Position numbers and translations under genes: made by a program. This document shows positions 17,463 to 57,528 of a DNA stretch of 64,000 bases, piece after piece (positions within the stretch are counted from its first letter, which is position 1; the number at the start of each line of letters is the position of its first letter). The notes beneath the pieces are model-generated. The model made no database searches. It was given only the letters and a program-made list of their open reading frames with translations, and was not told the DNA's origin. The DNA lies in IMG/VR virus record IMGVR_UViG_3300029860_000005, positions 1,390 to 65,389 of that record. One strand, given 5' to 3'. The DNA is from a virus.

Positions 17463-17510
17463 AAATAAAAAAATTGGATAGTATATTTTATATACTATCC
17501 AATTTTATAT
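17463..17510. terminator. bidirectional hairpin terminator (AAATTGGATAGTATA/TATACTATCCAATTT) flanked by A/T runs
   Basis: 15-bp perfect inverted repeat. Confidence 0.5.
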
Positions 17511-17905
17511 TAAATACCATAATCAGTATTTATAGGATCACTATTATCGCTATAATCGTCTTCAGTATAATAACTCATAGAGGTAGTTTCAGTATTATCT
17601 ACTGTTGGTGTATTATTTAATTCTTCTTTATAATTATTATAAGCTTCATCAAGCTCTTTCATAACTGAAGCATATTTAATGCCATCTTTAGTATTTTCAG
17701 CCATTGATTTTTTATAATAGTATACTTGGCTCACGCCATATGCCGCCCAAGGAAGACTTGCGCTTGCGGTAAGCCAGGGTAAAGAACCCATATATCCATT
17801 ATAAATACAATAAAATGCTAAAACAATATATGCTAATGTTGAAATCCAAATTAAAGCAGATTCTTGAATTAACAGAGTTTTAGAAAATTCTCTTTTTTGT
17901 TTCAT
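17510..17905 (-). CDS. membrane protein
   Basis: two predicted TM helices; precedes the lysis genes. Confidence 0.4.
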   Translation of the reverse strand: MKQKREFSKTLLIQESALIWISTLAYIVLAFYCIYNGYMGSLPWLTASASLPWAAYGVSQVYYYKKSMAENTKDGIKYASVMKELDEAYNNYKEELNNTPTVDNTETTSMSYYTEDDYSDNSDPINTDYGI

Positions 17906-17906
17906 A

Positions 17907-18125
17907 TTACACCAATCCTTTATCTTTCATAATTCTATAAAGAACTACAATCATTTCTTCACGAGTCATAAATTTTTTATACATTTTACGATTTAAATTA
18001 TCGCCTTTAATATATCCTTTACTTTCAGCCCACGTTCTTTCCGTATCAGACCAAGAACTTGCATTTTTTTCGGCTTGTTGATTTAAATAAACTTCCATCA
18101 TTTCATTAAATTTATCCTGAGTCAT
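17907..18125 (-). CDS. hypothetical protein
   Basis: 72-aa ORF. Confidence 0.3.
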   Translation of the reverse strand: MTQDKFNEMMEVYLNQQAEKNASSWSDTERTWAESKGYIKGDNLNRKMYKKFMTREEMIVVLYRIMKDKGLV

Positions 18126-18305
18126 ATCTTCATCCTCCTCATTAATATTTATATTATCACCGATTTTTTGTTTAAATAACTACCATTGGTAATCGCCACT
18201 TGTTTTATAATAACTATTCATGTCAGTTCCGCATAATGGACGAGGGCATAATTTACCAGTTACATCATAGTGGCGAATAACGTGGTTCGCAGGTATATTG
18301 TATTT

Positions 18306-18746
18306 CTACATTAATTGTTTTACCAATTGTACTGTATTTTCTAATGCTCTTGGATCAAAATACCAATCAGTATCACCGGCTATAATATTAGATTTATTTA
18401 TTTTACAGGGTCTTACTTCAATTCCAATAGAATTAGCATTTCTACATTCAGGATGTTTATACCCTTTTCTTGTGCCACAGTGCCAAGCGATATCTTCATC
18501 TTTAACACTACGATAAATAATATCTTTTTCATCAACACAATAATGGGCTGATGATTTAGCGACAGGGTTTTTGAAATAATTACTAATATTTTTCGCTGTC
18601 CCTAAAGAACCAAAATAATGTATTACAATATATTTTATTTTTCTATTATTGCCTTTTTGATAATTAGATGTTGTTAAATTATCTACAATTTTCATATCTT
18701 CACCTTTTCCTATAAATTGATCATATATTTCAACTCCATAATACAA
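18306..18746 (-). CDS. N-acetylmuramoyl-L-alanine amidase (Amidase_2/PGRP-type endolysin domain)
   Basis: 'IVIHYFGS...SAHYCVD...IAWHCG' zinc-amidase motifs. Confidence 0.6.
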   Translation of the reverse strand: MYYGVEIYDQFIGKGEDMKIVDNLTTSNYQKGNNRKIKYIVIHYFGSLGTAKNISNYFKNPVAKSSAHYCVDEKDIIYRSVKDEDIAWHCGTRKGYKHPECRNANSIGIEVRPCKINKSNIIAGDTDWYFDPRALENTVQLVKQLM

Positions 18747-19208
18747 TCTCTACTATTGGATTTTTAAACTCTAATCTTTTGGTCGTTCAAACTATGTTAA
18801 AACTATATTTGAAGCAGTCTATATATCTTTACAATTTATTAAAGTATTCCAAACGGTAGGATAATATGTAGAAAGTTGATAAATTAAAAATTCAAGTTGT
18901 GTATTTAAGTTTCCTATTGAAGTATTCTTCTTTTTTGTAAAATCATATAACTGTTTTTTAAGGCTCCAATAGGTCCATTGAGCTAAGCCATATCCAGCTT
19001 TATCATAAATAAAATTAGTATATTTACCATTATCTACTTGTTTTGTATACTATTCATCATTTAATCCAAGTGTTTTTTCAAAACTATTTTGAAGATTTTT
19101 TGGATTAAAATTTGATTCAGCTTTTAGGTTTCCCATTAGCCCGGCCGTTCCATAAGGGTTTTTTATTTGTTTATACAAATAATTCCAAGCTATTTCAATG
19201 TTAGTCAT
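18747..19208 (-). CDS. phage lysozyme-like domain (GNLKAESNFNP motif), interrupted by several TAG including a TAG-TAG pair; may be fused to the downstream amidase
   Basis: Minus-strand frame from ATG 19208 reads 'MTNIEIAWNYLYKQIKNPYGTAGLMGNLKAESNFNP...' broken only by TAG. Confidence 0.4.
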
Positions 19209-21324: not shown

Positions 21325-21365
21325 CAAAAAAATAAAGGCGAAAGTATTATACTTTCGCCTTTATT
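21325..21365 (-). terminator. rho-independent terminator after radical SAM gene
   Basis: AAAGGCGAAAGTAT/ATACTTTCGCCTTT + T-run. Confidence 0.5.
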
Positions 21366-22658
21366 TTAATTTAATAATTCATCTATCCATTCTTGCTTCA
21401 TATTATTTGGAAATTCTTTATCTATATTATGTTTTTTATAATATTTATTCCAAAATTCAATATTAGCAAGAGCACGAGCTTTGTGCATAGGACAAATATA
21501 AGTAACTCTTTTATTAAGAACGCCTGTTTCTTGATAATTGTAAGCTTGACACCAAGCGCAACCGACTGCAATGGGACATTCACGACATTCATCAGAAGAT
21601 TGAGTATAAGAGTCAATGGCTTTTAACTCTCTTGTTAATTGTTTTTGCTCTTCTGTTGTTGCTATTTCATTTTTATTTACATTTCCTATAATAAGAGGTG
21701 GAACAGAATCACCTAAAGCATCTTCCATATAGCGTAAACAAGGATATAAATTACCTGTATAGTTTAGAGCAATCATAGCTCCATTTCCACCGCACCAATT
21801 TTTTAGTTCATCTTCGTTAGACCAATCTTTAGGTCTAAAAAATTTTGAATCTGGATATTCAAAAAATGAAATATACACGTCTTCTTCTAAATCGTTGTCG
21901 AGAAGGTAATTTCCTAATTTAGTCAATTCTTTATAATAAATTTTAGCATAATCTAAATTCCACCCTTTTTCAAATACTACATTTCCTAATATAGATGTAA
22001 AACCTAAATCTAAAAGATTTTTTACAGCATCAAATAAATAATTTATATTACTAGGAGATAAAGTAACTTTGGAACAAGGATATTCTCCAGTTTTTTCTCG
22101 CCAATCTTCTATTGCTTTTACTACAATATTATAGCTACCTGAACCATCAGGAAATTTTCTGCAAGCATCATGTAATTCTTTATTTCCATCAATACTAATA
22201 GAAACAGACAACCATTGTTTATATTTATCTAAAAATTTTTGCACTTTTGGATCAAAATATAATGTTCCATTAGTACAAATTAAAAATCTTGTAAAATAAA
22301 TTAATGGACTATTCATTTCAATTAATTTAGAAATTGTATAATCCATTACTTTATCTATTAAGTCTATATTTAAAAAAGGTTCTCCACCAATAAAATCAAA
22401 AATTAATCCTTTAACATTTTTTGGATTAAAATATTCATTTTCTTTAGGATTTATTGCTATCATATCTATATAATTTTTAGCAGTTTCAAAATCCATTAAA
22501 TGATTTTTTTTACATATTTGATAACAATAACTGCAACGTAAATTACAAGAATCGGTTACTTGTAATGTTATATCAAAAATTTTGTCATCTTTATCTGTTA
22601 ATAATTCTGGATATAACCTTTGTACTGTATCGTTATACTGTTCGAATTTACGTCTCAT
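21366..22658 (-). CDS. radical SAM enzyme with C-terminal SPASM/twitch-like Cys cluster (anSME/peptide-maturase-like)
   Basis: 'CNLRCSYC' Cx3Cx2C; C-terminal 'CRECPIAVGCAWCQAYN'. Confidence 0.7.
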   Translation of the reverse strand: MRRKFEQYNDTVQRLYPELLTDKDDKIFDITLQVTDSCNLRCSYCYQICKKNHLMDFETAKNYIDMIAINPKENEYFNPKNVKGLIFDFIGGEPFLNIDLIDKVMDYTISKLIEMNSPLIYFTRFLICTNGTLYFDPKVQKFLDKYKQWLSVSISIDGNKELHDACRKFPDGSGSYNIVVKAIEDWREKTGEYPCSKVTLSPSNINYLFDAVKNLLDLGFTSILGNVVFEKGWNLDYAKIYYKELTKLGNYLLDNDLEEDVYISFFEYPDSKFFRPKDWSNEDELKNWCGGNGAMIALNYTGNLYPCLRYMEDALGDSVPPLIIGNVNKNEIATTEEQKQLTRELKAIDSYTQSSDECRECPIAVGCAWCQAYNYQETGVLNKRVTYICPMHKARALANIEFWNKYYKKHNIDKEFPNNMKQEWIDELLN

Positions 22659-22963
22659 TTTACATCATCATTAATGGTTACAATAATTGTTTGAGTTGAA
22701 AAATCAATACTCCAATAAGCATTATTGCCATATTTATTTAAACCATAATATTTTGTTACATCATTTCTAATTTTATCATATTCAATAAATTTTTCAACAT
22801 ATTCTTGATGATATCTTTTATAATTATCAGTATCCATATTATTAAATGAACTACTATTCATCATATAAGTGATAATACTTTGACGAGCAAGAAGATCTTG
22901 ATAAGCTCGTTCTAATTTATCATTTAATTCTACGTTATTAGCATTTACTGTAATTGTTTTCAT
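22655..22963 (-). CDS. hypothetical protein
   Basis: 102 aa, translationally coupled to the radical SAM gene. Confidence 0.3.
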   Translation of the reverse strand: MKTITVNANNVELNDKLERAYQDLLARQSIITYMMNSSSFNNMDTDNYKRYHQEYVEKFIEYDKIRNDVTKYYGLNKYGNNAYWSIDFSTQTIIVTINDDVK

Positions 22964-22989
22964 TATTTTTCTCCTTTTTATCTTATAAA

Positions 22990-23709
22990 TTAACTTTTTA
23001 AATTTTTAGAATATAAAGATTTTAAAGCATTAATTGCTTTTTGCATTTCAGATTTAGTACAGACATTTCCATTATAAGAAGTGTTCTACATTTTAGAAAT
23101 ATTTGTGAATATTTCGTTTTTTAAGTTTGTATTGACTTTAGTGTTAGAAGAAACTTGTGTAGATAAAGGGCTATATCCACGCCTAAATAATTCTTTGTTT
23201 AGCATAGTATAAATATTAGCAATATCAGCAGCGTATAAAACAATTCTTAAATTAATAGAATTATAAAGATTTATATTAGCTGAAGTAGAGCATCCATTAT
23301 CACACCCGCCAGTACAAGTACCAGTACAAGCAGAACAATCAAGCCTACAAGTATCAGAGCAACCTTGACATCCTCCAGAACAACTTCCTGTGCAATCAAA
23401 ACGACAAGCGGCGCTACAACCATCACAATCTCCTCGACAACTTCCAGAACAACTACTAGAACATCCTGATCCGCAGTTTCCAGAGCAGTCACCTTGACAA
23501 GTAGAATCACAAGCGGCGCACCAATTACCACATGTACTGGAACATCCAGTATCACAACCGCCTTCACAACTACCTTGGCAACCTCCCTAACAGACAGTGC
23601 CACAAGTTTCACAAAGAGAACAATTACCACCACAGCCGTTATCACAACCGTTAGTACAACTTATAGTGCACTATCCCTTGCACCCAACTGTACTACAATT
23701 ACTAGCCAT
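22990..23709 (-). CDS. Cys/Gly/Asp-rich repeat protein (~240 aa, repeats of C-x(2-3)-C with GC/DC/SC), three in-frame TAG (23671, 23587, 23086)
   Basis: Hand translation of minus strand from ATG 23709: 'MASNCSTVGCKG-Q-CTISCTNGCDNGCGGNCSLCETCGTVC-Q-GGCQGSCEGGCDTGC...'. A 720-nt frame interrupted only by TAG. Replaces track ORF 23271..23645. Confidence 0.5.
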
Positions 23710-24278
23710 ACATTATGTCCTCCTTTAAATATTTTTTACGATATTCTCTAATTCATCTAATTTATTAAATAATTTATATCTAATAAAGATACTGCTCAAT
23801 AAAGAATAATATCTTAGATTATTATTTTCTTTTATTTGATAATTATTGAAAAATACAGTATTATTTTCAATAGTATCTGAATCAGCTTGCACTTCTAAGA
23901 ATAAATAATCAATTTCAGTTTGTATATGAATATTGTTTTTCAGATAATCTATTTTATTTATAAAATTTTGAAGTTTGTTAATCTTATCTAAAGAATGTAA
24001 AAATTCAAAATTTTGAATATTATAAAAAATAATGGCAATATTTTCTTGATTAATTTCTCCTTCAACTTCATTCAGCTATGAAATTAATTCATTATCATCA
24101 AATAAAGCACTTTAATATAAATTATAGCAAAATTTTTTTGATTTTGCAAATTTTATTTACCTAATTTATTTATAAATACTGGGTTTATTTTTAATGAAAA
24201 ATGACCATTTAACATTTTGTTAGAAAAATTTCTATGGGTGTGAGCAATTGGAACTACGGCCGATCGCGTTAATCAGGG

Positions 24279-24317
24279 ATAAAAAAATAGACACTATGAA
24301 ATAAATCATAGTGTCTA
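24279..24317 (-). terminator. rho-independent terminator after flotillin gene
   Basis: TAGACACTATG/CATAGTGTCTA + TTTTTTT. Confidence 0.5.
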
Positions 24318-24323
24318 TTTAAA

Positions 24324-40196: not shown

Positions 40197-41732
40197 TTAC
40201 TTAATACAAGCGTAGCGCTCGCTATTAAGCTTTTCCATCATAAGATCGTATCCAGTCTTTCCAGAAAGGATAGTCTCAAAAATGGTAGGACTCATGCCGG
40301 ATACAAAGGAAATACCATTCTTAACAGTCATAGGAATATTGTTCTGACGAGCATCAACATTCCAGAAGATAAGATTAGGCATCTTATATCCATAAGCGTT
40401 CCATTCCTTTTCAATCTTCTCCATCAGAGTATTACTGACAGTGCCATAACTACCACAACGAACGCAGGAATTAAATTCCATATCACTAATGATAATCAGG
40501 TTTTCGGGAATCTCATCCTGAGAGCAACCATTCTTAATGGCAGTCTTAAGCATAAGGTCAAAGGCAGATTCGATATTAGTAGAACCGCCCCAAGGAGCAG
40601 AACTAATACGCTTTACCTTATCGCAGAAATCAACACCTTCAACTTCCATGAAGTGAGGAGCAGACTCGAAAGTCATAAAATGATTTGCGAACGGGCCCTT
40701 AGCCTTATCTGCACAATACATACCAATAGAAATAGCTACATTGATAGGAGCAGAAGCTTCACTACCAGTCATAGAACCGGAAGTATCAACGAGAGCCATA
40801 CCATTAAAAGTTTTACCGGCAAAGTAATCAGCGAGATTCGCCCAATACTTATTAATCATAAGACGATCAGTATTGTCCATAGAGATAGCATGATCATAAC
40901 CATACCGACCATAACCGCCATAACCCATAAGGTTCATAGCCTTAGCAACACACTCATAAGGATAGAGAGCCTTGGCATTAACCGTGGTGGTTTCATCCTT
41001 GGCAAAATTCTCATAAGTGCGGGCGCCGGCCTTCTGACGCTCAATGTCATGACGCGCAAAAGCATTCTTATAGATAAGACCTGCGCGAGAAGGAATCTTA
41101 TCGAACTCAATCTTATCCCACTCGCCCGCAGACATCAAACGCTCAAGGACGTTAATGCGCTTACGAAGAATAGAGAGAGTCTTACGATACTGACGAGGAG
41201 TCATATTAAGATGCTTACGAGTCTTCATGCCGAGATACTGAGACTTCGCGGAACTGGTGTTCTCGCTCTTCAGCCACTTAGCCAAAAGAGAAGGAGTCTT
41301 ACACTGAACATCAAGAGCCAACTGCTCCTTAATGAGAGTATATGCTTCATCCTCAATGGCCGTACCATCAAAGACGTAAAGGTCGTCCCAACGACCAAAC
41401 TCAGGGACATTCTTCAAATTGCGAATAACGGCCTCAGATTCGTTATTTGCTAGCCACTTCATACAAATGCGGAAGAAGCGACGCTCACCTTGACCACCGC
41501 GCACATCGCGGATATAAAACAGACACTTCAAGGCATAAAGAGGATTCTCACGATATGCCTTCTGGAACATAAGAAGAACATCCTCATCACTACGCTTACG
41601 CATAGAAGCGCCGAGCGCGAACATGTCCAAAAGATCACTGGTCGTGGTCTTATGAGTAAGCGCGCCATTCTCCGTGAGAGTATAATTAGTCTCATTCTTC
41701 ATGCCATTCAAAAAAGTATTCATAGTCTTCAC
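40197..41732 (-). CDS. vWA-domain protein with TROVE/Ro60-like N-terminal region (DUF2828-like)
   Basis: MIDAS 'LVDTSGSMTGSE' (DxSxS); 511 aa; sits directly beside the tRNA and Y-like RNA array. Confidence 0.5.
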   Translation of the reverse strand: MKTMNTFLNGMKNETNYTLTENGALTHKTTTSDLLDMFALGASMRKRSDEDVLLMFQKAYRENPLYALKCLFYIRDVRGGQGERRFFRICMKWLANNESEAVIRNLKNVPEFGRWDDLYVFDGTAIEDEAYTLIKEQLALDVQCKTPSLLAKWLKSENTSSAKSQYLGMKTRKHLNMTPRQYRKTLSILRKRINVLERLMSAGEWDKIEFDKIPSRAGLIYKNAFARHDIERQKAGARTYENFAKDETTTVNAKALYPYECVAKAMNLMGYGGYGRYGYDHAISMDNTDRLMINKYWANLADYFAGKTFNGMALVDTSGSMTGSEASAPINVAISIGMYCADKAKGPFANHFMTFESAPHFMEVEGVDFCDKVKRISSAPWGGSTNIESAFDLMLKTAIKNGCSQDEIPENLIIISDMEFNSCVRCGSYGTVSNTLMEKIEKEWNAYGYKMPNLIFWNVDARQNNIPMTVKNGISFVSGMSPTIFETILSGKTGYDLMMEKLNSERYACIK

Positions 41733-41767
41733 CTAAATCTTTAACAAGATTCCTTTCTGAAAATTTA

Positions 41768-41844
41768 ATGGAGGCAAGGGTGAGATTCGAACTCACGAAT
41801 ACCGGCTTTGCAGACCGTCCTCTTAAACCACTTGAGTACCTTGC
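41768..41844 (-). tRNA. tRNA, probably Cys (GCA), atypical D-arm
   Basis: acceptor GGCAAGG/CCTTGCC, T-arm GTGAGTTCGAATCTCAC, CCA encoded; anticodon loop CUGCAAA. Confidence 0.45.
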
Positions 41845-41860
41845 CATATGAGTAAATTAA

Positions 41861-42172
41861 TTACTCATAAATATAAATTTCACCATCTTGAATGTTTAAT
41901 AATTCAATAGGAAGCGTATTACATCTTTTAATCCATTCGTCATGACCAATTACAGCAGATGCTCTATTAGGATAGCTTTCAACGATAATCCATTGATCAC
42001 TATCTATTTTAATACCAGTTTCATAACGTCCAGTATCATTAGTATAACAAGTATCAATAGTAATAAAATGTTTATTATTAATTAATTCTGTAGTATCTAC
42101 TACATCACCGCGAATATCAAAACCGGCAGAAAGAGTATCTAAAAAATTTAGAAAATCATTTGTATTCATCAT
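41861..42172 (-). CDS. hypothetical protein
   Basis: 103 aa between tRNAs. Confidence 0.3.
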   Translation of the reverse strand: MMNTNDFLNFLDTLSAGFDIRGDVVDTTELINNKHFITIDTCYTNDTGRYETGIKIDSDQWIIVESYPNRASAVIGHDEWIKRCNTLPIELLNIQDGEIYIYE

Positions 42173-42286
42173 ATTACTATTCTCCTTAAAAAAAATAAAG
42201 CTGATAAACTAATTAAATTCATAATTAAATTAGTTTATTAACTTAACCTATGTTATTACGCAATAAATAATATTATTTCCAACTTA

Positions 42287-42361
42287 TGGTGCGGTTGGAG
42301 GGACTTGAACCCTCGGCCAATAGCTTAAAAGGCTACTGCTCTACCACTGAGCTACAACCGC
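42287..42361 (-). tRNA. tRNA-Lys (UUU)
   Basis: cloverleaf by hand: GCGGTTG..GTAGC CTTTTAA GCTAT..GAGGGTTCAAGTCCCTC CAACCGC A CCA. Confidence 0.7.
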
Positions 42362-42544
42362 ATAAAAAACAAGACGCTCTTCTTTTTAATTTCATTACAA
42401 GCAAAAAGATTAATAGCTGGATGCGTCTTTAATAGTTATTTATAATTTATCTGCTCTCTTAATTTTTAGTTTTTTCAAACAATCCTCCAAAGAGAACAAA
42501 TCGTCTATTTTCTAATATAATTTTCATATAAACGACTTTAAATT

Positions 42545-42691
42545 CTAGAGCCAAGCCATTTATATTACTTATTATATCATACTCATAGACCTACAAGCAT
42601 TTGATTTTACATCAATCCTTTTTAGTAGAAACTTAAAATAAGTTAATAGCACTGGAAACCCAGTAAAAAAAATTTGCTGTATGGCTCTATG
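42545..42691 (-). ncRNA. structured RNA element of the 'ACAGCAA' family (closing helix TAGAGCCA/TGGCTCTA, internal hairpins)
   Basis: leader 'CATAGAGCCATACAGCAAATTTT' pairs with 'GGCTCTAG' about 130 nt downstream. Confidence 0.3.
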
Positions 42692-42741
42692 TAGTTAATT
42701 AATCAGGCATCGCGATTTATCATAGACCGAATTAATAACTA

Positions 42742-42816
42742 TGGAGCAAGTGAAGGGGATCGAACCCTCATTCTCGGCTTGGAAGGCCGATGCACTAGCC
42801 ATTGTACTACACCTGC
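42742..42816 (-). tRNA. tRNA-Gly (UCC)
   Basis: anticodon arm TCGGC CTTCCAA GCCGA; T-loop TTCGATC; CCA encoded. Confidence 0.65.
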
Positions 42817-42904
42817 GTAAGCATTTTCTTTATATTGTTGAAAATGCCAAACAATCAATAAAGAGAATAAGAATTGAAAAAAATTTTGTACGTTTTATAT
42901 ATTT

Positions 42905-42933
42905 ATTATATATTAAATTTTTAAAAATGTCAA
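42905..42933 (-). promoter_or_regulatory. sigma70-type promoter TTGACA-17-TATAAT (tRNA-Gly transcription unit)
   Basis: by eye. Confidence 0.5.
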
Positions 42934-42939
42934 ATTTTC

Positions 42940-43251
42940 TTATTTCCTAATGTAATATCGCATATAATCTTGATATGCTTTTTCACGAGTAGGAAATTCA
43001 TAATTTAAATAAGGATATACTCGCCAACGATACCAACGTGAAATTTCATTTTTATAAAAAGTTTCAAAATCACCTTCTATGGTATAATAATCGCAAATAT
43101 CATAAGAACAAAAAAGTTTTTTATACTCTTTGTAATTATAAATTTCTTCAGAATTTTTTAATTTTTGACGAACTTTTTTATTTGCGTATCTCTTATATCC
43201 GCGGTCTTTGCGATCGCCACTATAAGGTGTTTTTTTTCTACTTCTACTCAT
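42940..43251 (-). CDS. small basic protein
   Basis: 103 aa, Lys/Arg/Tyr-rich. Confidence 0.3.
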   Translation of the reverse strand: MSRSRKKTPYSGDRKDRGYKRYANKKVRQKLKNSEEIYNYKEYKKLFCSYDICDYYTIEGDFETFYKNEISRWYRWRVYPYLNYEFPTREKAYQDYMRYYIRK

Positions 43252-43581
43252 TCTTTTAACCTCCTTTAAAAGATGTTAAAAGATAGTCATTCGAGAACCC
43301 ATTGGACTCACTCCTTTTAGATTAACTTAAATAATAATATGGTAGCTATGACCCGGTTTCATGGTCAATTACGAAGAGCAGTTAAAAGTTGTTATCTTTT
43401 ACCTAAAATCTCTCTTCAACTTCTTACGAAGGACTAAGCCGTATCATTTGGTTTTCCCAACTTATTTCGACTTGCAGATTTGTTACCTACTGCTGTACTA
43501 CCTGTTGGCCTGTCTATGTCAACCCCGACCCGTCTATCTAATTTTCATTAGAGGCAACTGCCGTTAGCTATTATTATTTAA

Positions 43582-44036: not shown

Positions 44037-44047
44037 TTTCTATATAT

Positions 44048-44307: not shown

Positions 44308-44311
44308 TACT

Positions 44312-46711: not shown

Positions 46712-47569
46712 TTAAATCCAAGCCACGGGGACAGGGGTCCAAGTACCTGTGGTAGAAGTTCTATATTTAAAAGTGCCAGTAGAACTGGTAGTATCGATCC
46801 AGAGTAATGGGGTAGTTCCAGACGCGGGTTGCGTAGATCCAATATAGATAGCATAATCAGTAGTAGTTCCAATTACTGGAGTTTTATCTATTATAGACCA
46901 AGACCCATCTGCGCGCAAGTATTTAGTAGTGCTACCATCTGATTTTGGAACAACACCATTTTTAGTGGTTGAAAATAATCCAATATCATCAGCATTAACA
47001 TTAACTGAGGCTGCTCCTTCAATACCCATTACAGTAAGATAATCACCTTTTTTAGCAGTCCAATCTACTAAAGTAAGAGTGTTATTACTAATAGTGTAGT
47101 TATCATTTTCTTTCATCATTACACCATTATAATAGGCAGTTAATGTGCCAGAATCATTATTAAAATCAAAAGGAATAGTAAATGTTGATTGTGTGGCATC
47201 TGTTACAGTAAAAGTATATTTATTAGTAATTGAGTGATAATCAACACCCTCGGTTGCCGCTGTAATAGTAGTACCATCACTTTTTAAAATACCAGTTGGA
47301 AGAGAAACAAGAGTAGCTTCAATAGGAGTTTCCCATGTCTCACCGTCTGTATTTTTTACTAAAGCATCACCAGCGGTTCCACCATCAGGAAGACAAGAAC
47401 TAAAATCTAAATCATTAACTTTAGTTATTCCATCACCAATTTTTATTTTATTTAAATCATCATAGATGATAATTTCACCTTTTAAAGGAATAAAATTAGT
47501 CGCTTTTGCCCAATTCGCGGAACTATCATGCTTTTGGACTATGCGACCTTGATATGTTTTATTAGCCAT
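46712..47569 (-). CDS. tail fibre protein
   Basis: C-terminus 'LLWIDTTSSTGTFKYRTSTTGTW' paralogous to the upstream fibre. Confidence 0.45.
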   Translation of the reverse strand: MANKTYQGRIVQKHDSSANWAKATNFIPLKGEIIIYDDLNKIKIGDGITKVNDLDFSSCLPDGGTAGDALVKNTDGETWETPIEATLVSLPTGILKSDGTTITAATEGVDYHSITNKYTFTVTDATQSTFTIPFDFNNDSGTLTAYYNGVMMKENDNYTISNNTLTLVDWTAKKGDYLTVMGIEGAASVNVNADDIGLFSTTKNGVVPKSDGSTTKYLRADGSWSIIDKTPVIGTTTDYAIYIGSTQPASGTTPLLWIDTTSSTGTFKYRTSTTGTWTPVPVAWI

Positions 47570-47594
47570 ATTATTTTCCTTTCTTTAAAAATTT

Positions 47595-49140
47595 TTATTG
47601 TTTAACTGCATTTGCTTGAAGCCAGGTCAGTAGGTCACCGGTTGGAGGGTCCAAAAATGTGACAGTGCGGTAGGCAGAATTGATCCAATTTGCATTTCCC
47701 GCTACATGGTCTGCATCTGGACTGCTAACAAAAATTTCATTTACTGTTGTATTATTGTACTTGATATAAGTTGAACCCATAGGGGGCAATCCGAATTGTT
47801 ATTGAAGTAAAATTCTCCCCATTTGAAATAAAATTCAACGAAGAAGCAGTAAAATTAGCAAGAGAAGAATAATTATCATTAATAATTCATATTTCTTTTG
47901 GAACAATAGGTGGGTCAGGAGCAACTTTCGCGCGCACTAAAGAATTATTTATTTTTATAATATCATTTTTAGAATCCTACTTTGTTCTTATTAAATTACC
48001 ATTTTCTGCTATATTATTACTATCAGTAGAAATTAAACTATTATTAGCAAGAACAATATTTTTATTTTGTAATAATATTTTCATTAATTGTCTCCTTTCT
48101 TTTAAGAGATTATTTTAGATTGATAAATTATTTTATTTTATATTATAAATATTTATTGAGATGGCATAATATATCCAGCAATATTTAATGTATAATATGT
48201 ATTTGACCAATAATAACTTGAATTGCCAATCGTCATATAAAATTTTGAAGAATTTTGGTCAAAAAAGTGTGAAAAATTAATATTATTATTATTATATCCA
48301 TCAAACTAAAATACATCACCATTTACAGCATAATATCCGTCTAAAAAAGCATAAATCCCTCCATCAGAAGGGACGTAATATCCATTTGGCTTAATTGAAA
48401 TAGATTGTATCTAAAAATTAGGTGGCATAGCTATACCATCCCAATATATTGTCTGCGTATTGCCAAAAAGTGTATTTCCAGCGCGAGCAATACAATAAAA
48501 AAAATCCTATCGAGTTCCAGTTACTCCAAAAATATTTACTCCACTTTTAATATTACTTGCAGTTAAATTACTACTTCCACTTACTCTTATAGCTCCAGTT
48601 GTATATTTTCCGCTATCAACTACGGTTTGATTATATCTTCCAGGAGTTTTGGTAATTGTAATGTTTTATTTGTTCCACTTGATAAATAACCACTAGTTCC
48701 TACACTTGAAGTAATTAAACCATTACTATTAATTGTAGGATTATTAAGCACACCAGTTGGCATAGCATTAACAGTTACTTTAGATAATCCATCATAATCA
48801 TTATCAGGCATTATAATTTGAGAAGAGGTTGATGGTGTAATAATTTTATCTTGTAGTTTAGGATTTCCACCACCGCCACTTATTACTTCTATACTCACAT
48901 TAAACCTCCTTTATAGACAAAAAAATGGTGTTACCTCTTTTGTATAATTAGAAGTAACACCATTTAAAAAATAGTTTTCTCAATAATCATTTCCAAAAGA
49001 GTAAAACCAAAATATATATTTATAAATTTTAAGTTATCAATTTCAAACTTAAATTTTTATCTACATTATATATTAATTTTTGGAAATAATAATATATTGA
49101 ATTCGACCAAAAAGAAAAAGGCTCTCAATTAAGAGAGCCT
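47595..49140 (-). other. block of TAG-interrupted structural (tail fibre-like) coding sequence; includes track ORFs 47595..47789 and 48620..48898
   Basis: continuous minus-strand coding bias with many plus-strand CTA triplets and no long standard ORFs. Confidence 0.3.
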
Positions 49141-49144
49141 TTAA

Positions 49145-49525
49145 TTAAATATTTACCGTAGAAGTTCCGCAATCAAAAATGATATAATTAGTTTGCGCGA
49201 GCGCCTCAATAGAGGGTGTACCCCACGTTCCATCGCCTTTAAGAAAATTGTCCTTATTGGCGACCGCAGGCGCCGGCACTAAACCTTTTGCTCCATTGCT
49301 AGAACTGGTTGCGCCAACCATTACATCAATATTATTTTGAACGACGGTCCAATCTGCGATTTTAAAAGCGGAATTATAATCACCAACACATACAATCATA
49401 TCTCCTGGCTCAATTTTTCCAAGAGAGCTAAGAGTGAATGTGGCATTGGATTTATAAGTCCAACCTGTTTTATAATTAGTTAAATTTGTGATATCGGTAG
49501 CATTTGAAACCACACCTTTAAACAC
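49145..49525 (-). CDS. Ig-like structural protein
   Basis: 126 aa, beta-rich composition. Confidence 0.3.
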   Translation of the reverse strand: MFKGVVSNATDITNLTNYKTGWTYKSNATFTLSSLGKIEPGDMIVCVGDYNSAFKIADWTVVQNNIDVMVGATSSSNGAKGLVPAPAVANKDNFLKGDGTWGTPSIEALAQTNYIIFDCGTSTVNI

Positions 49526-49678
49526 AAGAGAAGAAGCAAGAGTCGTCTCAAGCTAAGTGAGACGATTTCTTGCGTCAGAGTCTTTCAGGTGGTAAATGAC
49601 GCTACCTAAGTTGATTTTGGAAATCAATTTCATATTATCTGCCATTTACTCACCACCTTATATTAAAATTTAACTAAA

Positions 49679-51148
49679 TTAAGCCTTAGTGATGGGACTG
49701 ACTTCAATTTCAACAGTCTTAGCAGTCTTAGTGATAACATCAGTCTCAGGAGTGATAGCAACGCTAAATGCAGCAGTAGCATCGGCCTTATCATAGCTAA
49801 CGCCAGTAATAAGAGCGTCTTTAACTTCAGTACCAGCAAAGTTAAGAGTAGCAGCAGTACCAGTAAAGGTAGCAGCATCAATTACAGGTTTAACATAAGT
49901 AACATTAGTAACTTTCATATCTTCAACTTCAGTACCGGTAAAGGTGCTATTAATAGCATATTTATTACCAGTAAAGGTAGGTTGAGATACTTCAACACTG
50001 GCGCCAGTCATAAGAGCGTCAGAAGCACCAAAGGTAGGTAAAGCACCAGACAAAACAGGAGCAGTATAACTAACATCACCAGAAGCAGTAACAGCATTAG
50101 AGGTGCCTGCCAGAGTAAAGATTAAGGTCTCAGCATCATCACCAGAGCCAACAGTAGCAACAATACCTTCAGTAGCAAAGGCGCTTTTAACATCAGTAGC
50201 TTTTTTAACAGAGCCTTTAGTAATACTATAAGCAGTACCAGCATTCTTCATTTCTTGAACTGTGGCAGTTGTAGGAGTAACAGTAGCAGTGGGTTTAGAA
50301 ATAGTACCAGCAATAGCAATACCATTATCGGCATCAGCAACAAAACTAGAAGTTACGGAACCTGCGGGTTTATAAGCTTCAGCAGTAATAGAAGCAGCAG
50401 TAGCAGCTTCAGCATCTTTAAGAGTAACGTTAATAGAACCACCAGAAATAGCAGAACCAGTAATCTTACCAGCAGGAGTGTAATTAGCCTTGGTAAGAGT
50501 GGCATCGGCGGCCTTAGAAGTAACAGCAGCATCACCAGCGACAGTGACAGGTTTCATGGTGATGCTATCAACGGTCTCAATTGACCCGGAACCAGAAGCC
50601 TTATCAGCATAGGCCATTGCGCCAAGAGTAAGAGCTTTCTGAAGTTCAGAGACAGAAATATCCTTGTTAAGTCGAATACCAGCAATGGTAATAGTATTAG
50701 AAATATAACCACTAAGGTCAGTCTTGGTGGAACCAATTTTTTCCCAAGCATAGGTATAAGCACCCTCAGCGCCAGAACGAATAGTAATCCACTCAATATA
50801 AGTACCAGCAGAAGCCTGAGCATCAGCAACCATGTAAATCTTATACATAGTGTCTTTAGAAGCTGCTACAGAAGGACCAGTAGCTCCACCATCAGTATCA
50901 ATTACAACATCAAAACTATGAATTTGTCCGACTTGAGAATCAACATAACTCTTAACGACAGAAGCATCAACAAGGCCTTCACCAGAAATTTCAGTGGCAA
51001 CTGCCTTCCAAGCGGCAGCACCAAGAGATTCAAGAGCATGTTTACCAAGAAGAGTAGTTAGATCCGCACGGCCATCCGCATCTTTTACATAAACTGTAGT
51101 GCCATTGGCGAGTTTAATTTTAGAAATATAAGTCTTAGTATCAGGCAT
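49679..51148 (-). CDS. Ala/Thr-rich structural protein (Ig/BIG-like repeats)
   Basis: 489 aa; GC-richer codon usage. Confidence 0.4.
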   Translation of the reverse strand: MPDTKTYISKIKLANGTTVYVKDADGRADLTTLLGKHALESLGAAAWKAVATEISGEGLVDASVVKSYVDSQVGQIHSFDVVIDTDGGATGPSVAASKDTMYKIYMVADAQASAGTYIEWITIRSGAEGAYTYAWEKIGSTKTDLSGYISNTITIAGIRLNKDISVSELQKALTLGAMAYADKASGSGSIETVDSITMKPVTVAGDAAVTSKAADATLTKANYTPAGKITGSAISGGSINVTLKDAEAATAASITAEAYKPAGSVTSSFVADADNGIAIAGTISKPTATVTPTTATVQEMKNAGTAYSITKGSVKKATDVKSAFATEGIVATVGSGDDAETLIFTLAGTSNAVTASGDVSYTAPVLSGALPTFGASDALMTGASVEVSQPTFTGNKYAINSTFTGTEVEDMKVTNVTYVKPVIDAATFTGTAATLNFAGTEVKDALITGVSYDKADATAAFSVAITPETDVITKTAKTVEIEVSPITKA

Positions 51149-51729
51149 AATATATATATCTCCTTTATTTTATTTATTTCTTAATCCCAAGGAAGATCAA
51201 GAGTTAGACATTCTTTATCTTCGTCGTCTAATACGAATTTAATAGAATTTACACCATCTGTAATAGCTTTTTGAGTCATTGTTCCATCTATATTACTTCC
51301 TGAAGTCTCATAAAGTTTCATAATACCAGCAATATTTTCTGTTGCCTCTGGAGTTAAACAATAATAACTATCCCCATCGGAAATATAGACAGAAGATTTC
51401 GCGTTTTTATCAATATAAATGTGTTTTTGACTTTTTTCTAATTCAGTTGTGTAAGTGCTATCGGTATAAAATTTATTATTAAGATAATAACCTGTAAGAA
51501 TTATATTATTGTTATTATCAGAATAAACTAATTGATTATAAGAATTAATTCCATCACCAATCTTAATTCTTAGACCATAATTTATTGTATCAACTAAACA
51601 AACCTCTCCACGAGCGGGAATGAATTTATTTCCAACTTTTTCATAATTATAGTCATTATCGCGACGTAATTTAATAATAGAATTAATCTATTTTATATTA
51701 GGCATTAATTAGCCTCCTTTCTACCTTTT

Positions 51730-52101
51730 TTAGGCAGTAGGAGCACTACCACCATCAATAATTAAACCATCGAGTATATCAGTTAAATCATTTTCATTAG
51801 GAACTTGACTAAATTGGTTGTTATTAATAACATTGTAACTAATCCAGTTGCCATTTTTATCTTTAATTGAAATGGTTTCACCTTCATAATTACCATATTT
51901 AGCAACCCAAAGACGTGCTTCATTTTCATTTTCAAAACGAGTCTTTTTAACAATTTGTTTTAAATTGCCTTTTTCATCATAATAATAAACTTCTCCGCTA
52001 TTTTTCTCGTTATTTGTTACAATAAGAGTTTCATTAGAGATAACCTCTTCAGCGATGCTATTATTAATTTTATCTTTATTCAGATATGCTAATTTAAACA
52101 T
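51730..52101 (-). CDS. hypothetical structural protein
   Basis: 123 aa. Confidence 0.3.
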   Translation of the reverse strand: MFKLAYLNKDKINNSIAEEVISNETLIVTNNEKNSGEVYYYDEKGNLKQIVKKTRFENENEARLWVAKYGNYEGETISIKDKNGNWISYNVINNNQFSQVPNENDLTDILDGLIIDGGSAPTA

Positions 52102-52241
52102 CAGTCAATCCTCCTTCCTTAGATTTTCGTGGTTACTACATAATAGCCATCAATGTAGTCTTGCTCGTAACCATCGGCAATCATTGCTTCTGGAAGTTGA
52201 TGACTGAATCTACCACCAGAAATAATAAATTCAGCATTGCC

Positions 52242-53609
52242 CTAAATTGTAAATAATTCTTTGCCAGTACTTTCAAAAGTACCACCTGTAATTATAGTTT
52301 TACCAATATTAAGAGTATCATTGTTTTTAACACCTTGAACAGTAGCCTTACCATCATTTGTTGAGAAATAACCACCATTAATAGTAACAATTTTACCAAC
52401 ATTATAAATTGGGCCGTAGAATTTACCATCATTAATAGTTAAAACACCATTATCATCATTTTTAATAGTAACATAAGCGTTAATAAAAGTACCACCATTA
52501 ATAGTTAATTCAGGAGACTCAGCATTTTCACCATTAATATGTTCTTTACTATAATCATAATAACCATTATCAACTAAGCTGGATAATCCGCCAGGAGAGG
52601 AGAAGACACCGTCACTAATAGTCATATAACCATGATTTTTTAAAACATATCCTCCATTACCTTTTTCATCAATAGAACGAGAATAGGTTCCATTTTTAAT
52701 TGTAACGTTACCATTGTTTTCAACAACAGCTCTACCATTTTTATTACATTCTACGTTACCATTACCAGTTAAAGTAAGGTCACCAGTATTTTTAATTACA
52801 ACAGGGCAAGTGTCATTATTAACAATAACAGCATTATTCATATCAACAGTAAATCTTTTATTCGTGGAAATTGATTCATCTGCCTCAAGGCCACTATTTA
52901 ATTTAATAGTTCCGCCATCTTCAACAGCATCAATAGCTTCATTTACACCAATAAAAGTTTGTCCATTGACTTCAACTGAAGTGTCATCTACGGTTTCACC
53001 ATATACTTTAATAACATCTAAATCAGTTTTTAAAGCATACTTGTCAAGTTCAACTTTCTCAACATAATTTTTTGCGATTTCTGTCTTAACATCTTCTACT
53101 TTTTGGCCGACTTCAGTAACTTTATTATCTATATCAGAAATTTTTTGATTAATTTCGCTAATAGAAGAATCAATTCCATCAAATTTTTTATTTAAGTCAG
53201 TAGTTAAATCTTTGATACTAACTTTAATAAGATTATCTGTTTCTTCTTTATTATAATAATTGCTAAGATCAACTGCATGAAAAATTTCCCAATTGTCGCC
53301 GTCCCAAATATAGAGACTACGTTCCGCGGTTACTTGATAAATATCACCTGTTTCCGCGGATTCTGGTAAATTACTTTTTTCTGCGACTGTACCAATAAAA
53401 TGAATAGCCCCTTCATTAACACCAACGTATTTGAGTTCGCCCCAAGTAGAAGTGCCATCACCAATTTTTACTTGGCCTTTATTTTTTCCGTCGAGAGTTA
53501 CGCATGGTTCGCCCGCTTTTGGAATATAAGTATTAGCAACTGCATCCCATTGAGCTTGATATCCACGACGGAATTGAATAAGGGTCTGTAAAGTTTTCTT
53601 ATTTGCCAT
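52242..53609 (-). CDS. right-handed beta-helix tailspike/pectate-lyase-like protein
   Basis: repetitive 'NxxIxNxGxxT' coils, e.g. 'VIVNNDTCPVVIKNTGDLTLTGNGNVECNKNG'. Confidence 0.45.
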   Translation of the reverse strand: MANKKTLQTLIQFRRGYQAQWDAVANTYIPKAGEPCVTLDGKNKGQVKIGDGTSTWGELKYVGVNEGAIHFIGTVAEKSNLPESAETGDIYQVTAERSLYIWDGDNWEIFHAVDLSNYYNKEETDNLIKVSIKDLTTDLNKKFDGIDSSISEINQKISDIDNKVTEVGQKVEDVKTEIAKNYVEKVELDKYALKTDLDVIKVYGETVDDTSVEVNGQTFIGVNEAIDAVEDGGTIKLNSGLEADESISTNKRFTVDMNNAVIVNNDTCPVVIKNTGDLTLTGNGNVECNKNGRAVVENNGNVTIKNGTYSRSIDEKGNGGYVLKNHGYMTISDGVFSSPGGLSSLVDNGYYDYSKEHINGENAESPELTINGGTFINAYVTIKNDDNGVLTINDGKFYGPIYNVGKIVTINGGYFSTNDGKATVQGVKNNDTLNIGKTIITGGTFESTGKELFTI

Positions 53610-53632
53610 TTACAAATTTCCTCCTTATTTAT

Positions 53633-53851
53633 TTATACTGGAACTTCTCCGCCATCAATAACCTCATATGTATTATCATCATTAATGTAAGGAAGATCAT
53701 TCCAAGCATGAACACCATCGCCAACTTTTAATTTGCCAGTGTCTAATTCAAAACCCGGTTCTCCCGGACCTAAAAGAATATTTTTTTTAGCCCAAGTTTC
53801 TGCGTTTCCACGTTTAAAGTAAAACTTTGACTTCATATAAACATCAGCCAA
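53633..53851 (-). CDS. small structural protein
   Basis: 72 aa. Confidence 0.3.
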   Translation of the reverse strand: MADVYMKSKFYFKRGNAETWAKKNILLGPGEPGFELDTGKLKVGDGVHAWNDLPYINDDNTYEVIDGGEVPV

Positions 53852-53865
53852 TTAAATACACCTCC

Positions 53866-54138
53866 TTAATCAATACTACCGCCATCCCAAATATATGTAT
53901 TATCAGGATTAGAAGGTTCAGAGCTCCCGCCACTACCACTATTATTACTATTGGATTTTTGTTCAACCCAAGTATTATTATCTTGATAAATATATAATTT
54001 TGATGATTTAGGAATAAAAGCAGTACTGCCAGGGAGCAATGAAATTGTTGGAATTTTTTCAATATCTTCAACAGAATCAACTATGAATTTTTTTAATCCA
54101 TAATTAACTTTACCATTTTGATGTGTTAAAGTATACAT
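53866..54138 (-). CDS. small structural protein
   Basis: 90 aa. Confidence 0.3.
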   Translation of the reverse strand: MYTLTHQNGKVNYGLKKFIVDSVEDIEKIPTISLLPGSTAFIPKSSKLYIYQDNNTWVEQKSNSNNSGSGGSSEPSNPDNTYIWDGGSID

Positions 54139-54239
54139 CTTATTGCCTCCTCTTTTATTACATCATTCTAAATAATATAAAAAAATATTCTTTATGAATA
54201 TAAAAAATTGGCCTACTGAAATTCTCAGTAGGCCAATTA

Positions 54240-56273
54240 ATTTTAATAATTATTATATGCAGTTAATAAAGTATCTAATTGTGCTTTAAAACTCGCATCA
54301 CCTGATGTTACTTTAGTATTATTCCCTAATGCGGTTGCGACTGCGTTAAACCAAATGACCAATCGTAATGGATTTGCATTATTGATAGTAATAATTGAAC
54401 TATTTAAATAAGTATTTATATATTCTGCAAAAGTATTTGCTTCACTTCTGGAATAATTTTTCCAAGTAAATGCAGGCCACCAGACTGCATAATAAGTTAT
54501 ATTAGATGTTTCGGCAACAATTGAAGGCGTTGTTCCCTTTTTATAAGTCGCGGTTTTTGCTGAAGATGATGTAGACCATCCTTTAAAAATATAATTAGAC
54601 TTTGTTGGAAAATTAGATCCATTTATATTAAAAGAAGAATTAGCATTAACGGTCTATGATCCAGGTCCACCAGAACCGCCATTTGCATTATAAGTCACAG
54701 TAATTGTATTTATTTTCCAAATGGCATAAAAAGTTGTTGAACCACTTACTGATACTGCACTTCCTGCATTATATCCAGAAGTTGCTGATGAAGAAGTGCT
54801 CCATCCTTGGAAAGTATAACCAGTACGAGTAGGCGCGGAAGCCATTGTAGCAGTCATAGAATCAGCATAAACATAATTTGTAGACCAAACAGTATTAGTA
54901 CCATCATTTTTATTAAAAGTTATTGTATATTGTCTATAATATTTATACTACCATGGTATAGAATATGTATTGCTAGCGCTCCAAGCAGCATTTACATACC
55001 AATAGTAAGTAGTGTTTGCTGATGCCACTTGTTCAATTTTAGTATCGTATCCAGTTCCTGCTCCATCATCGTCTGTTTTCAATGTTGTTCCACTAACAGC
55101 ACTTCTTCTATCAGTTCCTGAACCTGCTGATAAAAGTGAAGAACTTAAATAACTACAATAATCAGGAGTATTAGAATTACTAGTTGTTTTAAAAACTAAT
55201 TTTCCAGCATAACCTGGTGTTGTTACTGTAATATATCCTGCTTTATAAGCAGGTACAGAAGTAGTACTGCTTATTCCACCAATACCGCTGCCTATAGTGT
55301 ATATATTAATTGGGGCCATCCAAGAGCTTATTGATTCAAAATAAAAATAAAGTTGTCCTGAAAAAGCAGCAGGACTACTCCAAGGAGCCACCGTTATTCT
55401 ATAAGTTGTATTAGCTGTTACAGAAAATTGAGTTATTTTAAAATGATTATTTCCTCCACTCTAATCATCAGAGGTTAAATAATTTGTTATTGCCTAATAT
55501 CCATTAGAAGCGCTTGAATTTAGTCCTATTGAACTAGCATATCCTATAGTTCCATAATCATCAAAACTACTTCCAGAGGCATAAATTGTAAAGAATCCAT
55601 TTGAGCTGGGGGTATAATCAATATATCCAATTCCATAAGAAGATAAATTATAATCTGCATAAGTATTAACAGCTCCACTATAATTACCTAAATTTTGTAA
55701 ATACCATCCGGTTGGAGCTTCTGTATAAAAGAAAACTATATAAGGATATGTTGAACTGTGATCGGTACAAACGGAATCTGTTCCATCATAATTTCCATTT
55801 TCTGCCTACTCTACGCATTTTGACCAAGTGCTATGATAAACATAACCCTAATAAGTATACCCACTAATAGTAGGAGCTGTAATGCTTGAAGAAGAAGTGG
55901 AAGTTTCATAGCCCATATAACCTCCAGCGGTTAAATTATAGCAATCCCAATAATAATCCTCATCAGAGCCACCGCTACCTCCTCCGCCTCCACCAGATTC
56001 TTCATCAGTCCAAGCAACTCCTGTTCCAGATGCTCCATTATACCACTGGCCTGCTGTATAATAATCTACTTCCCAAGCATATTCATACCTTGTGTCAGGG
56101 GTTAATCCTGAAATTAGAACCCAAGGAGCTCCAGTTGTTGAAGGACCAGTATCCGAAGTTCCATCATCTAAGCAGACATATAACCTTCTACTAACCTGAT
56201 CTGAGCTTAATCCACTTGCTTCAAAAATTAATGAAGTAGTAGTACTACTTGTGCAACTTACAGAAACAGCCAT
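54240..56273 (-). other. large TAG-interrupted tail fibre/receptor-binding gene (includes track ORFs 54654..54857, 54948..55391, 55848..56273)
   Basis: Ser/Thr/Gly-rich beta-type composition, frame broken mainly by TAG. Confidence 0.35.
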
Positions 56274-57221: not shown

Positions 57222-57456
57222 TTTTTTATTTGAGGGTTTTAATTAGGTTAACCCATAACCTCCGATAGTGTGTCTACTGGACCAAGGAAATACCCGATCG
57301 CCGCATTTCGCTCTTTAAAAGATGGACGCTTCTAATCCTACTTCCTATCGTATAAAAGGACTTATCAATGACTGTTATACATATTGCCTTTATTATCTTT
57401 ATAAACAAATTAGCATTACCCAGTGCTACCGCGAGGAGGTTTTGTTTTTAGCACCG

Positions 57457-57528
57457 CGGAGGGGGTGGGTGTCGATCCCACTTATCTGGTTTTAGAGACC
57501 AGCGCATTTGCCGCTATGCTACCCCTCA
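57457..57528 (-). tRNA. amber suppressor tRNA, anticodon CUA (reads UAG), with tRNA-Gln-like identity elements U1, G10, U35, G73
   Basis: Hand fold: TGAGGGG TA GCAT AGCGGCAA ATGC G CTGGT CTCTAAA ACCAG ATAA GTGGG ATCGACA CCCAC CCCCTCC G. All stems Watson-Crick except 1:72; anticodon 'tag' on plus 57493-57495. Confidence 0.65.

Follow-up and report, generated by a model that had tools for sequence, protein, structure and literature searches.

We analyzed a window of 64,000 nucleotides (nt), positions 1,390 to 65,389 of the IMG/VR virus record IMGVR_UViG_3300029860_000005, and focused on a minus-strand cassette at 21366..23709 that encodes a radical S-adenosylmethionine (SAM) enzyme with a SPASM domain, a small companion protein, and a protein built largely of Cys repeats. 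The enzyme is a member of the TIGR04115 family of radical SAM peptide maturases, and the gene for its presumed substrate becomes readable only when TAG is translated as Gln. By analogy with characterized relatives of the enzyme, we consider it moderately probable that the enzyme and companion of this large gut-type phage introduce thioether staples into the CXXX-repeat protein and that the product, made late, would be part of the virion or decorate it as a fiber or stalk. The cassette comprises the following features:

22990..23709, minus strand: CXXX-repeat protein gene, 239 amino acids (aa), TAA stop, three in-frame TAG codons read as Gln; presumed substrate
23290..23697, minus strand: Cys-repeat region (residues 5 to 140), 36 Cys, mostly C-x3-C by spacing and composition
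22993..23289, minus strand: C-terminal helical domain of about 99 aa, a homologue of the domain that canonical CXXX-repeat proteins carry at the N terminus
22655..22963, minus strand: 102-aa companion, translationally coupled to the radical SAM gene by an ATGA stop/start overlap
21366..22658, minus strand: radical SAM/SPASM maturase of the TIGR04115 family, 430 aa, without an N-terminal RRE domain

The enzyme matched TIGR04115 ("radical SAM peptide maturase, CXXX-repeat target family") with 401.1 bits (cutoff, 350; E = 5.7e-120) over model positions 4 to 359 of 359, and homologues 48 to 51% identical to it carry the same name at NCBI. The Cx3Cx2C motif and the C-terminal Cys cluster that an earlier note on this sequence had pointed out correspond to C38/C42/C45 and to a seven-Cys SPASM set (C289, G302-x4-C307, C358-x2-C361-x5-C367-x2-C370, and C389), both invariant in 16 homologues; the Pfam matches were Radical_SAM, Fer4_12, and, at threshold, SPASM. 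By its score and these motifs, the enzyme is a TIGR04115 member with predicted ligands for the radical SAM cluster and for two auxiliary clusters. Its closest solved structure is CteB (5WGG; E = 3.5e-19), with residues 22 to 395 of the query aligned to residues 91 to 441 of the chain; residue 91 of CteB is the first to be aligned, and the N-terminal peptide-recognition (RRE) domain is accordingly missing from the window enzyme. Membership in the PapB (NF047865; 186.8 bits against a cutoff of 340; E = 6e-55), SCIFF maturase (TIGR03974; 119.3 against 425), and anSME (TIGR03942; 73.8 against 349) families was rejected, as these scores are far below the family cutoffs. The same holds for QhpD (TIGR03906; 95.1 against 453), for which no dehydrogenase genes were found nearby either, and the likeness to QhpD-type cross-linking suggested in the earlier note was thus not sustained, the more so as pairing of Cys with Asp or Glu is not a feature of the family. 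A housekeeping enzyme such as QueE or NrdG, the other outcome considered in that note, was rejected as well (the QueE-like PHROG reached E = 0.042, and neither NrdG nor QueE was among the 25 best of 62 NCBIfam matches), as was a prokaryotic viperin, whose pVip model matched only over its first 100 of 257 positions. PADLOC gave no defense-system identity.

The Cys-repeat protein is encoded in a frame that the listing of open reading frames (ORFs) had passed over, 26 bases upstream of the companion gene and about 330 bp upstream of the start of the enzyme gene, all on the minus strand. Translation starts at an ATG at 23709, which is kept in relatives and has an AAGGAGG ribosome-binding site 7 to 8 nt before it. 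Cys makes up 26.5% of residues 5 to 140; of the 35 spacings between the Cys residues, 28 are C-x3-C, 6 are C-x2-C, and 1 is C-x4-C. The other repeat positions hold chiefly Gly, Ser, Thr, Asp, and Asn. The array and nonrepetitive tail described in the earlier note are both present, together with every example it had listed of Asp or Glu beside Cys (CDNGC and others), the array being shorter (about 136 instead of about 150 aa) and the tail longer (about 99 instead of about 90 aa) than stated there.

Nine loci in IMG/VR encode a relative of the radical SAM enzyme, of which eight are 87 to 90% identical to it and lie on contigs of 47 to 197 kb, and the Cys frame, tail included, was kept in all eight of these close relatives. 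Across seven relatives, 35 of 37 Cys columns were conserved; the number of repeats differs among close relatives (e.g., by an additional 19 aa in L005, where labels from L005 to L162 for loci and from P0038 to P0245 for proteins denote relatives numbered in this analysis). Differences in the Cys frame fell mainly on the third codon position, with 51% (repeat) and 58% (tail) of the differing codons being synonymous, compared to 6 to 17% in the other two frames. The conservation of Cys and the synonymous bias of this frame are far beyond chance. Read with code 11, the frame has three interruptions, ORF finders report a Val-rich frame at 23271..23645 instead, and public gene calls often choose that alternative too (e.g., P0038 and P0124), so that the Cys frame might be taken for a pseudogene with three stops or for no gene at all. 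The synonymous-change test and the Cys columns, together with the pairing of TAG with Gln codons in relatives and the presence of a suppressor tRNA (see below), led us to reject the alternative frame, which relatives do not conserve, and to regard the view that the Cys frame is not a gene as almost certainly wrong. The missed frame of the earlier note is therefore a real gene, one that needs code 15.

Gene callers often miss the Cys frame in standard-code genomes as well, taking a Val/Ala-rich alternative frame, and some of the resulting wrong-frame calls are fusions with the companion or the enzyme (L010:4988-5695; P0038, P0124, and P0146). As a consequence, CXXX substrates are under-represented or garbled in protein databases. 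Neither Pfam nor NCBIfam had a match to the Cys-repeat protein of the window, and PHROGs yielded the unnamed family phrog_6085 only. With the two models for Cys-rich repeat targets, TIGR04114 and TIGR04117 (cutoffs, 20 and 50 bits), there was no match to the former and a score of 7 bits (E = 5.9) for the latter, a result in which the low-complexity correction may mask a real relation. Many canonical substrates (P0134 to P0245) carry a precomputed match to the recent Pfam family PF27846.1.

The TAG codons of the substrate gene are codons 13, 41, and 208 (23671-23673, 23587-23589, and 23086-23088). The window holds 17 tRNA genes, one of which has the cognate anticodon:

57456..57528, minus strand: suppressor tRNA, anticodon CUA (ARAGORN; Rfam tRNA, 52 bits)

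Opposite in-frame TAGs, orthologues have Gln in 12 of 20 cases, and at two of the TAG positions of the Cys gene, some relatives have CAA or CAG instead. Additionally, complete matches to Phage_lysozyme2 and Amidase_2 are obtained for the endolysin gene at 17907..19208 only with its eight TAGs read through, with a mere 52-aa ORF being left under the standard code. By all three tests, this phage reads TAG as Gln (code 15), and translation of the substrate gene depends on its TAG-to-Gln suppressor tRNA. Recoded stops in code-15-type phages are reported to be concentrated in late genes. Here, TAG occurs three times in the substrate gene and eight times in the endolysin gene and is absent from the enzyme gene, the companion gene, and 11 upstream genes. 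Given that late-gene pattern, the presence of TAG in the substrate gene alone among the three would mean that the substrate is completed only once the suppressor tRNA is active, and the modifying proteins, whose genes lack TAG, can be made at any time.

Judging from profile comparison, the 102-aa protein is a distant relative of the TIGR04116-type companion. Its profile aligned with the companions of about 91 aa from Bacteroidales CXXX loci over 87 columns (hhalign; probability, 93.5%; E = 2.4e-7), and window-type and Bacteroidales companions share a C-terminal W-x-[IL]-[DN]-F motif. In a neighborhood map of the genes around the enzyme in 44 nonredundant loci, the companion family lies directly upstream of the radical SAM gene in 29. 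Homologues of the companion form 75 stand-alone clusters of about 90 to 120 aa and are all either stand-alone proteins or tandem duplicates; fusion to the enzyme was rejected, since the longer homologues proved to have unrelated C-terminal extensions or wrong-frame N termini. With the family membership of the enzyme and the homology of the companion, the arrangement of substrate, small protein, and radical SAM/SPASM enzyme is that of a maturase locus, as the earlier note had supposed.

The C-terminal domain of the substrate ties the window protein to the canonical members of the family. Profiles of the C-terminal tails of the window lineage and of the N-terminal domains of canonical CXXX-repeat proteins aligned with a probability of 93% (hhalign; E = 3e-7; 87 columns), which indicates that the domain order is permuted in the window lineage, where the repeats precede the domain. 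The reversed order is also found in L155 (a 185-kb code-15 contig with two copies), L025, and L029. In AlphaFold models, the canonical N-terminal domain (about 105 aa) is helical, with a predicted local distance difference test (pLDDT) score of 84 to 94, and is the only confident part of the canonical model; the model of the window-lineage protein is poor (mean pLDDT, 41), with a low-confidence prediction of three helices (pLDDT, about 50 to 63) in its C-terminal tail. No informative structural neighbor of the canonical helical domain was found, with BFVD returning uncharacterized gut-virome relatives only, and PDB sequence searches with profiles of the companion and of the domain, as well as with the C-terminal domain of L103 (see below), gave nothing significant.

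Relatives of the enzyme are numerous. There were 6,659 homologues at E <1e-20 among the candidates scored, and phage and prophage loci run into the hundreds. Stretches that encode relatives number at least 468 among the species-representative genomes and at least 238 in IMG/VR; these two counts were made with tblastn at E values up to 1e-3 and hence include distant radical SAM/SPASM enzymes. Against 50,697 phage records, the cassette DNA gave no nucleotide match, and a protein search gave two unannotated metagenomic hits only. The remark in the earlier note that such a cassette is unusual for a virulent phage is accurate insofar as it is missing from cultured phages and inaccurate insofar as it is common in uncultured phage contigs and in Clostridia prophages. 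Enzymes at least 40% identical to that of the window are almost always encoded in phage or prophage late regions, after the tail-fiber genes and before the lysis genes, the usual order being large tail-region proteins, Cys-repeat protein, companion, enzyme, and lysis genes. A tail-fiber-like protein was encoded 1 to 5 genes upstream in 32 of the 44 loci; Pfam matches upstream in relatives include Baseplate_J, Mu gp48, P2 gpI, tail-collar fiber, and Mtd_N, and those downstream include GH25, amidases, CHAP, holins, and XhlA. One Caproicibacterium chromosome (CP135996.1), from a cultured genome, contains two cassettes with an identical enzyme (L010, 1317302-1330621, and L011, 854248-867567), each in a different PBSX-like prophage between fiber genes and a GH25 endolysin gene.

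Canonical substrates of these loci are about 160 to 480 aa long and consist of the N-terminal helical domain followed by 17 to 95 Cys in CXXX and CXX units. Two variants (L144:5797-8226 and L162:4544-6994) are fusions of about 810 aa, in which a CXXX array of 230 aa is joined to two ALK_LTK glycine-rich domains (Pfam E = 4.5e-102), a domain also carried by the adjoining tail-region protein of about 900 aa. In the L103 type, the helical domain and 62 Cys are followed by a C-terminal domain of 190 aa, giving an anchor-stalk-head layout. More distant enzymes (35 to 39% identical), found in Bacteroidales genomes, are partnered with short CXXX peptides of 60 to 210 aa. Five such loci from Bacteroidales and Ignavibacteriaceae (L034, L036, L037, L039, and L041) encode one to four short Cys-repeat peptides with a twin-arginine signal (SRR[ED]FFKKAAK), some with a lipobox, and are ordered as Cys-repeat peptides, radical SAM enzyme, a protein of about 315 aa, a companion of about 91 aa, and tatA, with tatC in addition in L041. 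The signals and gene order suggest that the modified product of these distant loci may be exported through the twin-arginine translocation (Tat) pathway.

In the window, the cassette forms a transcription unit of its own, with three coupled conserved genes and the following predicted elements:

24285..24320, minus strand: intrinsic terminator (stem of 15 pairs and a T-run) that follows the upstream SPFH/flotillin gene; upstream limit of the unit
24121..24149, minus strand: promoter-like site, TTGCAA-17-TATAAT with TG before the -10 element (consensus scan, 10/12)
23725..24100, minus strand: remnant of a fourth operon gene, which encodes about 164 to 180 aa in relatives and stands at the head of the operon
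21329..21367, minus strand: intrinsic terminator directly after the radical SAM gene, 18-pair stem followed by a T-run

Both the promoter-like site, which is a match to the consensus, and the fourth gene could be compared with L094, L095, and L097. The site is conserved in these three loci; relative to them, the window has a 79-bp deletion (at about 24090..24100) that removed the ribosome-binding site, the start codon, and about 24 codons of the fourth gene and left the promoter-like site intact.

On the basis of characterized relatives, a route from these three genes to a stapled protein can be proposed. The helical domain would act as a docking handle, and the companion, replacing the missing RRE domain, would bridge this handle to the enzyme, which would then proceed along the repeat by 5'-deoxyadenosyl radical chemistry, during which an auxiliary cluster would bind the Cys thiol. 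Cys sulfurs would be joined to carbons of nearby residues in sactionine- or ranthionine-type thioethers, as with PapB and CteB, turning a floppy Cys/Gly/Ser chain into a stapled, protease-resistant, redox-insensitive rod. The repeats adjoining the helical domain are the best conserved, with the remaining ones varying in sequence and number, which would fit a register that is set at the handle. QhpD, NxxcB, PapB, and CteB are thioether-forming radical SAM-SPASM enzymes (PMC10114670), and PapB forms six thioethers along a series of CXXXD motifs, the Cys being bound by an auxiliary cluster (PMC12373016).

The PapB precedent raises the question of whether the staples could be of the QhpD/PapB type, in which the Cys sulfur is linked to an acidic residue nearby, at its beta or gamma carbon. 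PapB ranks second among the families matched by the enzyme and acts on a periodic motif (PMC12373016), Asp or Glu is found at -1 or +1 of 10 of the 36 Cys (our own count), and some acidic positions are kept in relatives (CDNGC and an xxDC before the last repeats). By the same count, only 2 of the 36 Cys have Asp or Glu at i+4; Asp amounts to 7.4% of the repeat here (Asp plus Glu, 8.9%) and to 2.7% in 32 canonical relatives, which leaves most Cys unpartnered, and several acidic positions are substituted in relatives that are about 90% identical. With so few acidic residues at i+4, so little Asp in relatives, and this turnover, regular links between Cys and Asp or Glu are unlikely, and in view of the PapB and QhpD scores given above as well, we consider this version of the chemistry very improbable. 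It is also conceivable that the array binds metal or iron-sulfur in the manner of a metallothionein or that it undergoes some other radical chemistry, such as an anSME-like conversion of Cys to formylglycine. Arrays of C-x2-C and C-x3-C rich in Gly and Ser resemble metal-thiolate proteins, anSME is a recognizable relative of the enzyme, and the twin-arginine signals beside tatA and tatC in Bacteroidales relatives represent an export route for proteins that are folded or loaded with a cofactor in the cytoplasm. Plain metal binding would, however, not need a dedicated radical SAM/SPASM enzyme and companion that are strictly co-inherited with the array, the anSME score is a small part of its cutoff, and the nearest characterized relatives all form thioethers (PMC10114670); we therefore hold this explanation to be quite improbable.

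As for the fate of the product, a classical ribosomally produced, post-translationally modified peptide (RiPP) pathway would provide another reading of the locus, in which the helical domain would be a leader of large size (in the window protein, a follower) that is cleaved off after modification and the small or medium-sized cross-linked peptide, encoded by an accessory ("moron") cassette, is freed by lysis to act as a bacteriocin, as a signal, or on the host as a manipulating factor. The gene layout is the standard one for RiPPs, all of the named families nearest to the enzyme are maturases of RiPPs, the unit comes with a promoter-like site and terminators of its own, and the distant Bacteroidales relatives do act beside short peptides. 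The prophage region between tail-fiber and lysis genes is, moreover, a common site for accessory genes, and leaders of 70 to 100 aa are found in the NHLP and Nif11 classes. What makes us regard a released peptide as rather unlikely is that none of the 44 loci has a conserved protease or exporter beside the cassette, that phage-type substrates reach 480 aa and more, with up to 95 Cys, and are in some cases fused to large receptor-binding-like domains, that the substrate of the window, read from its sequence, has no signal peptide, and that the helical domain occurs at either end of the protein. The proximity of fiber genes, the length of the substrates, the receptor-binding-like fusions, the lack of a protease or exporter, and the late-type codon usage favor a fiber or stalk over a released peptide. 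The earlier note had left the choice between a RiPP-like product and a cross-linked structural protein, and the context favors the latter, with both the cross-links and the virion role being inferred. In its most specific form, which is tentative and on present evidence unlikely, the proposal would be that CXXX-repeat proteins are a novel virion fiber or stalk of anaerobic gut Firmicutes phages, stiffened by a ladder of dozens of thioether staples instead of by trimeric folding or disulfides, with the helical domain serving as both docking handle and particle anchor.

Several observations weigh against a stapled virion element. In the window itself, the tail-fiber genes lie at about 46 to 54 kb, away from the cassette, so the structural argument rests on relatives, and a unit with its own sigma-70-like promoter and terminators would also fit an accessory "moron" gene. 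The thioether chemistry is drawn from relatives whose models score far below their own cutoffs here, and Asp and Glu appear to be too few to serve as acceptors for most Cys. AlphaFold gave no confident structure for the repeats of either the window protein or a canonical relative. The companion matched TIGR04116 ("CXXX repeat peptide modification system protein") with 17.2 bits only (E = 0.004), below the cutoff of 50, and in 50 of its homologues this model reached E <0.01 in 5 and the cutoff in none. Finally, the cassette is absent from the cultured phage genomes among the 50,697 records, and a literature search by family name, accession, and phage context found no experimental paper on a TIGR04115-type system; the family is known as database models and is defined by genome context.

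In the window, the cassette is flanked on one side by the SPFH/flotillin gene and on the other by a 160-aa ORF, after which come a PhoH-like gene, the endolysin gene, and a probable holin gene. The lysis module (17510..19208, minus strand) is located about 2 kb downstream of the cassette, as in prophage relatives; the 131-aa protein encoded after the endolysin has hydrophobic stretches by eye and no family match and is probably a holin. Elsewhere in the window, a run of tail-fiber-like genes with Mtd_N domains (46712..56273, minus strand) includes one for a 676-aa Listeria-Bacteroides-repeat protein with six TAGs. A RAGATH-33 RNA (43440..43568, minus strand; 122.7 bits against an Rfam gathering threshold of 120.4) is situated inside a tRNA island at 41769-45319. 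Two further genes are unusual in a phage: 37219..39717 (minus strand), encoding a protein of 832 aa that contains Major Vault Protein shoulder and vault-repeat domains, and the adjoining 40197..41777 (minus strand), encoding a DUF2828/DUF7788 protein of 508 to 526 aa, depending on the start chosen.

Compared with known systems, the cassette is closest to the CXXX system of TIGR04114 to TIGR04117, with which it shares a maturase above the family cutoff, an adjacent CXXX target, a companion of about 100 aa, and the same Cys pattern for the radical SAM and SPASM clusters. It differs in that its target misses TIGR04114 and TIGR04117 and its companion stays below the TIGR04116 cutoff, and a 239-aa protein with a helical domain takes the place of the short twin-arginine peptide of Bacteroidales loci. 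We thus regard it as a variant of the database family in four respects: a permuted substrate, a TAG-recoded substrate gene, a divergent companion, and its location in a large virulent-type phage (about 195 kb). PapB, which acts on PapA to give the ranthipeptide freyrasin in Paenibacillus polymyxa, is the nearest characterized enzyme family and likewise has a Cys-periodic substrate, making small rings along six CXXXD units (PMC12373016). In the window protein, however, 28 of 35 units have the next Cys at i+4 in the place of the acceptor Asp, the length of the substrate is about fivefold greater, and there is a separate companion. CteB, the SCIFF maturase for thermocellin of Clostridium thermocellum (5WGG), similarly combines radical SAM and SPASM domains, with two auxiliary clusters and thioether chemistry, but has an N-terminal peptide-recognition domain (about residues 1 to 90) that the window enzyme lacks, and SCIFF has six Cys in 45 residues as opposed to a long array. 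A precedent for radical SAM-SPASM stapling of a protein subunit instead of a released peptide, with several Cys-derived thioethers, is provided by QhpD and QhpC (PMC10114670); QhpC is linked to Asp or Glu at fixed sites, whereas the window has neither a dehydrogenase context nor a regular acidic partner. Tail-fiber stalks (collagen-like Gly-X-Y or "LDxxGKIPxxQLP") share with the CXXX proteins their neighborhood, a variable number of repeats, and, in some members, an anchor-stalk-distal domain arrangement, but they are held by trimeric folding without a modifying enzyme, and the CXXX protein comes with one.

The pattern that emerges for TIGR04115, that of a phage late-region system acting on whole proteins, was not found in the literature and makes the function of the family testable, with the two Caproicibacterium prophages offering a practical experimental entry point. 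Two traps stand in the way of recognizing such loci, the recoding of stop codons, which hides the substrate gene, and wrong-frame calls across the Cys repeat in standard-code genomes; genome-mining tools likely count them as ranthipeptide-type clusters in gut Clostridia. The question would then no longer be the identity of an antibiotic peptide but the use that phages make of a protein so heavily stapled, and if the CXXX-repeat proteins are indeed virion fibers or stalks, radical SAM chemistry would become part of virion assembly.

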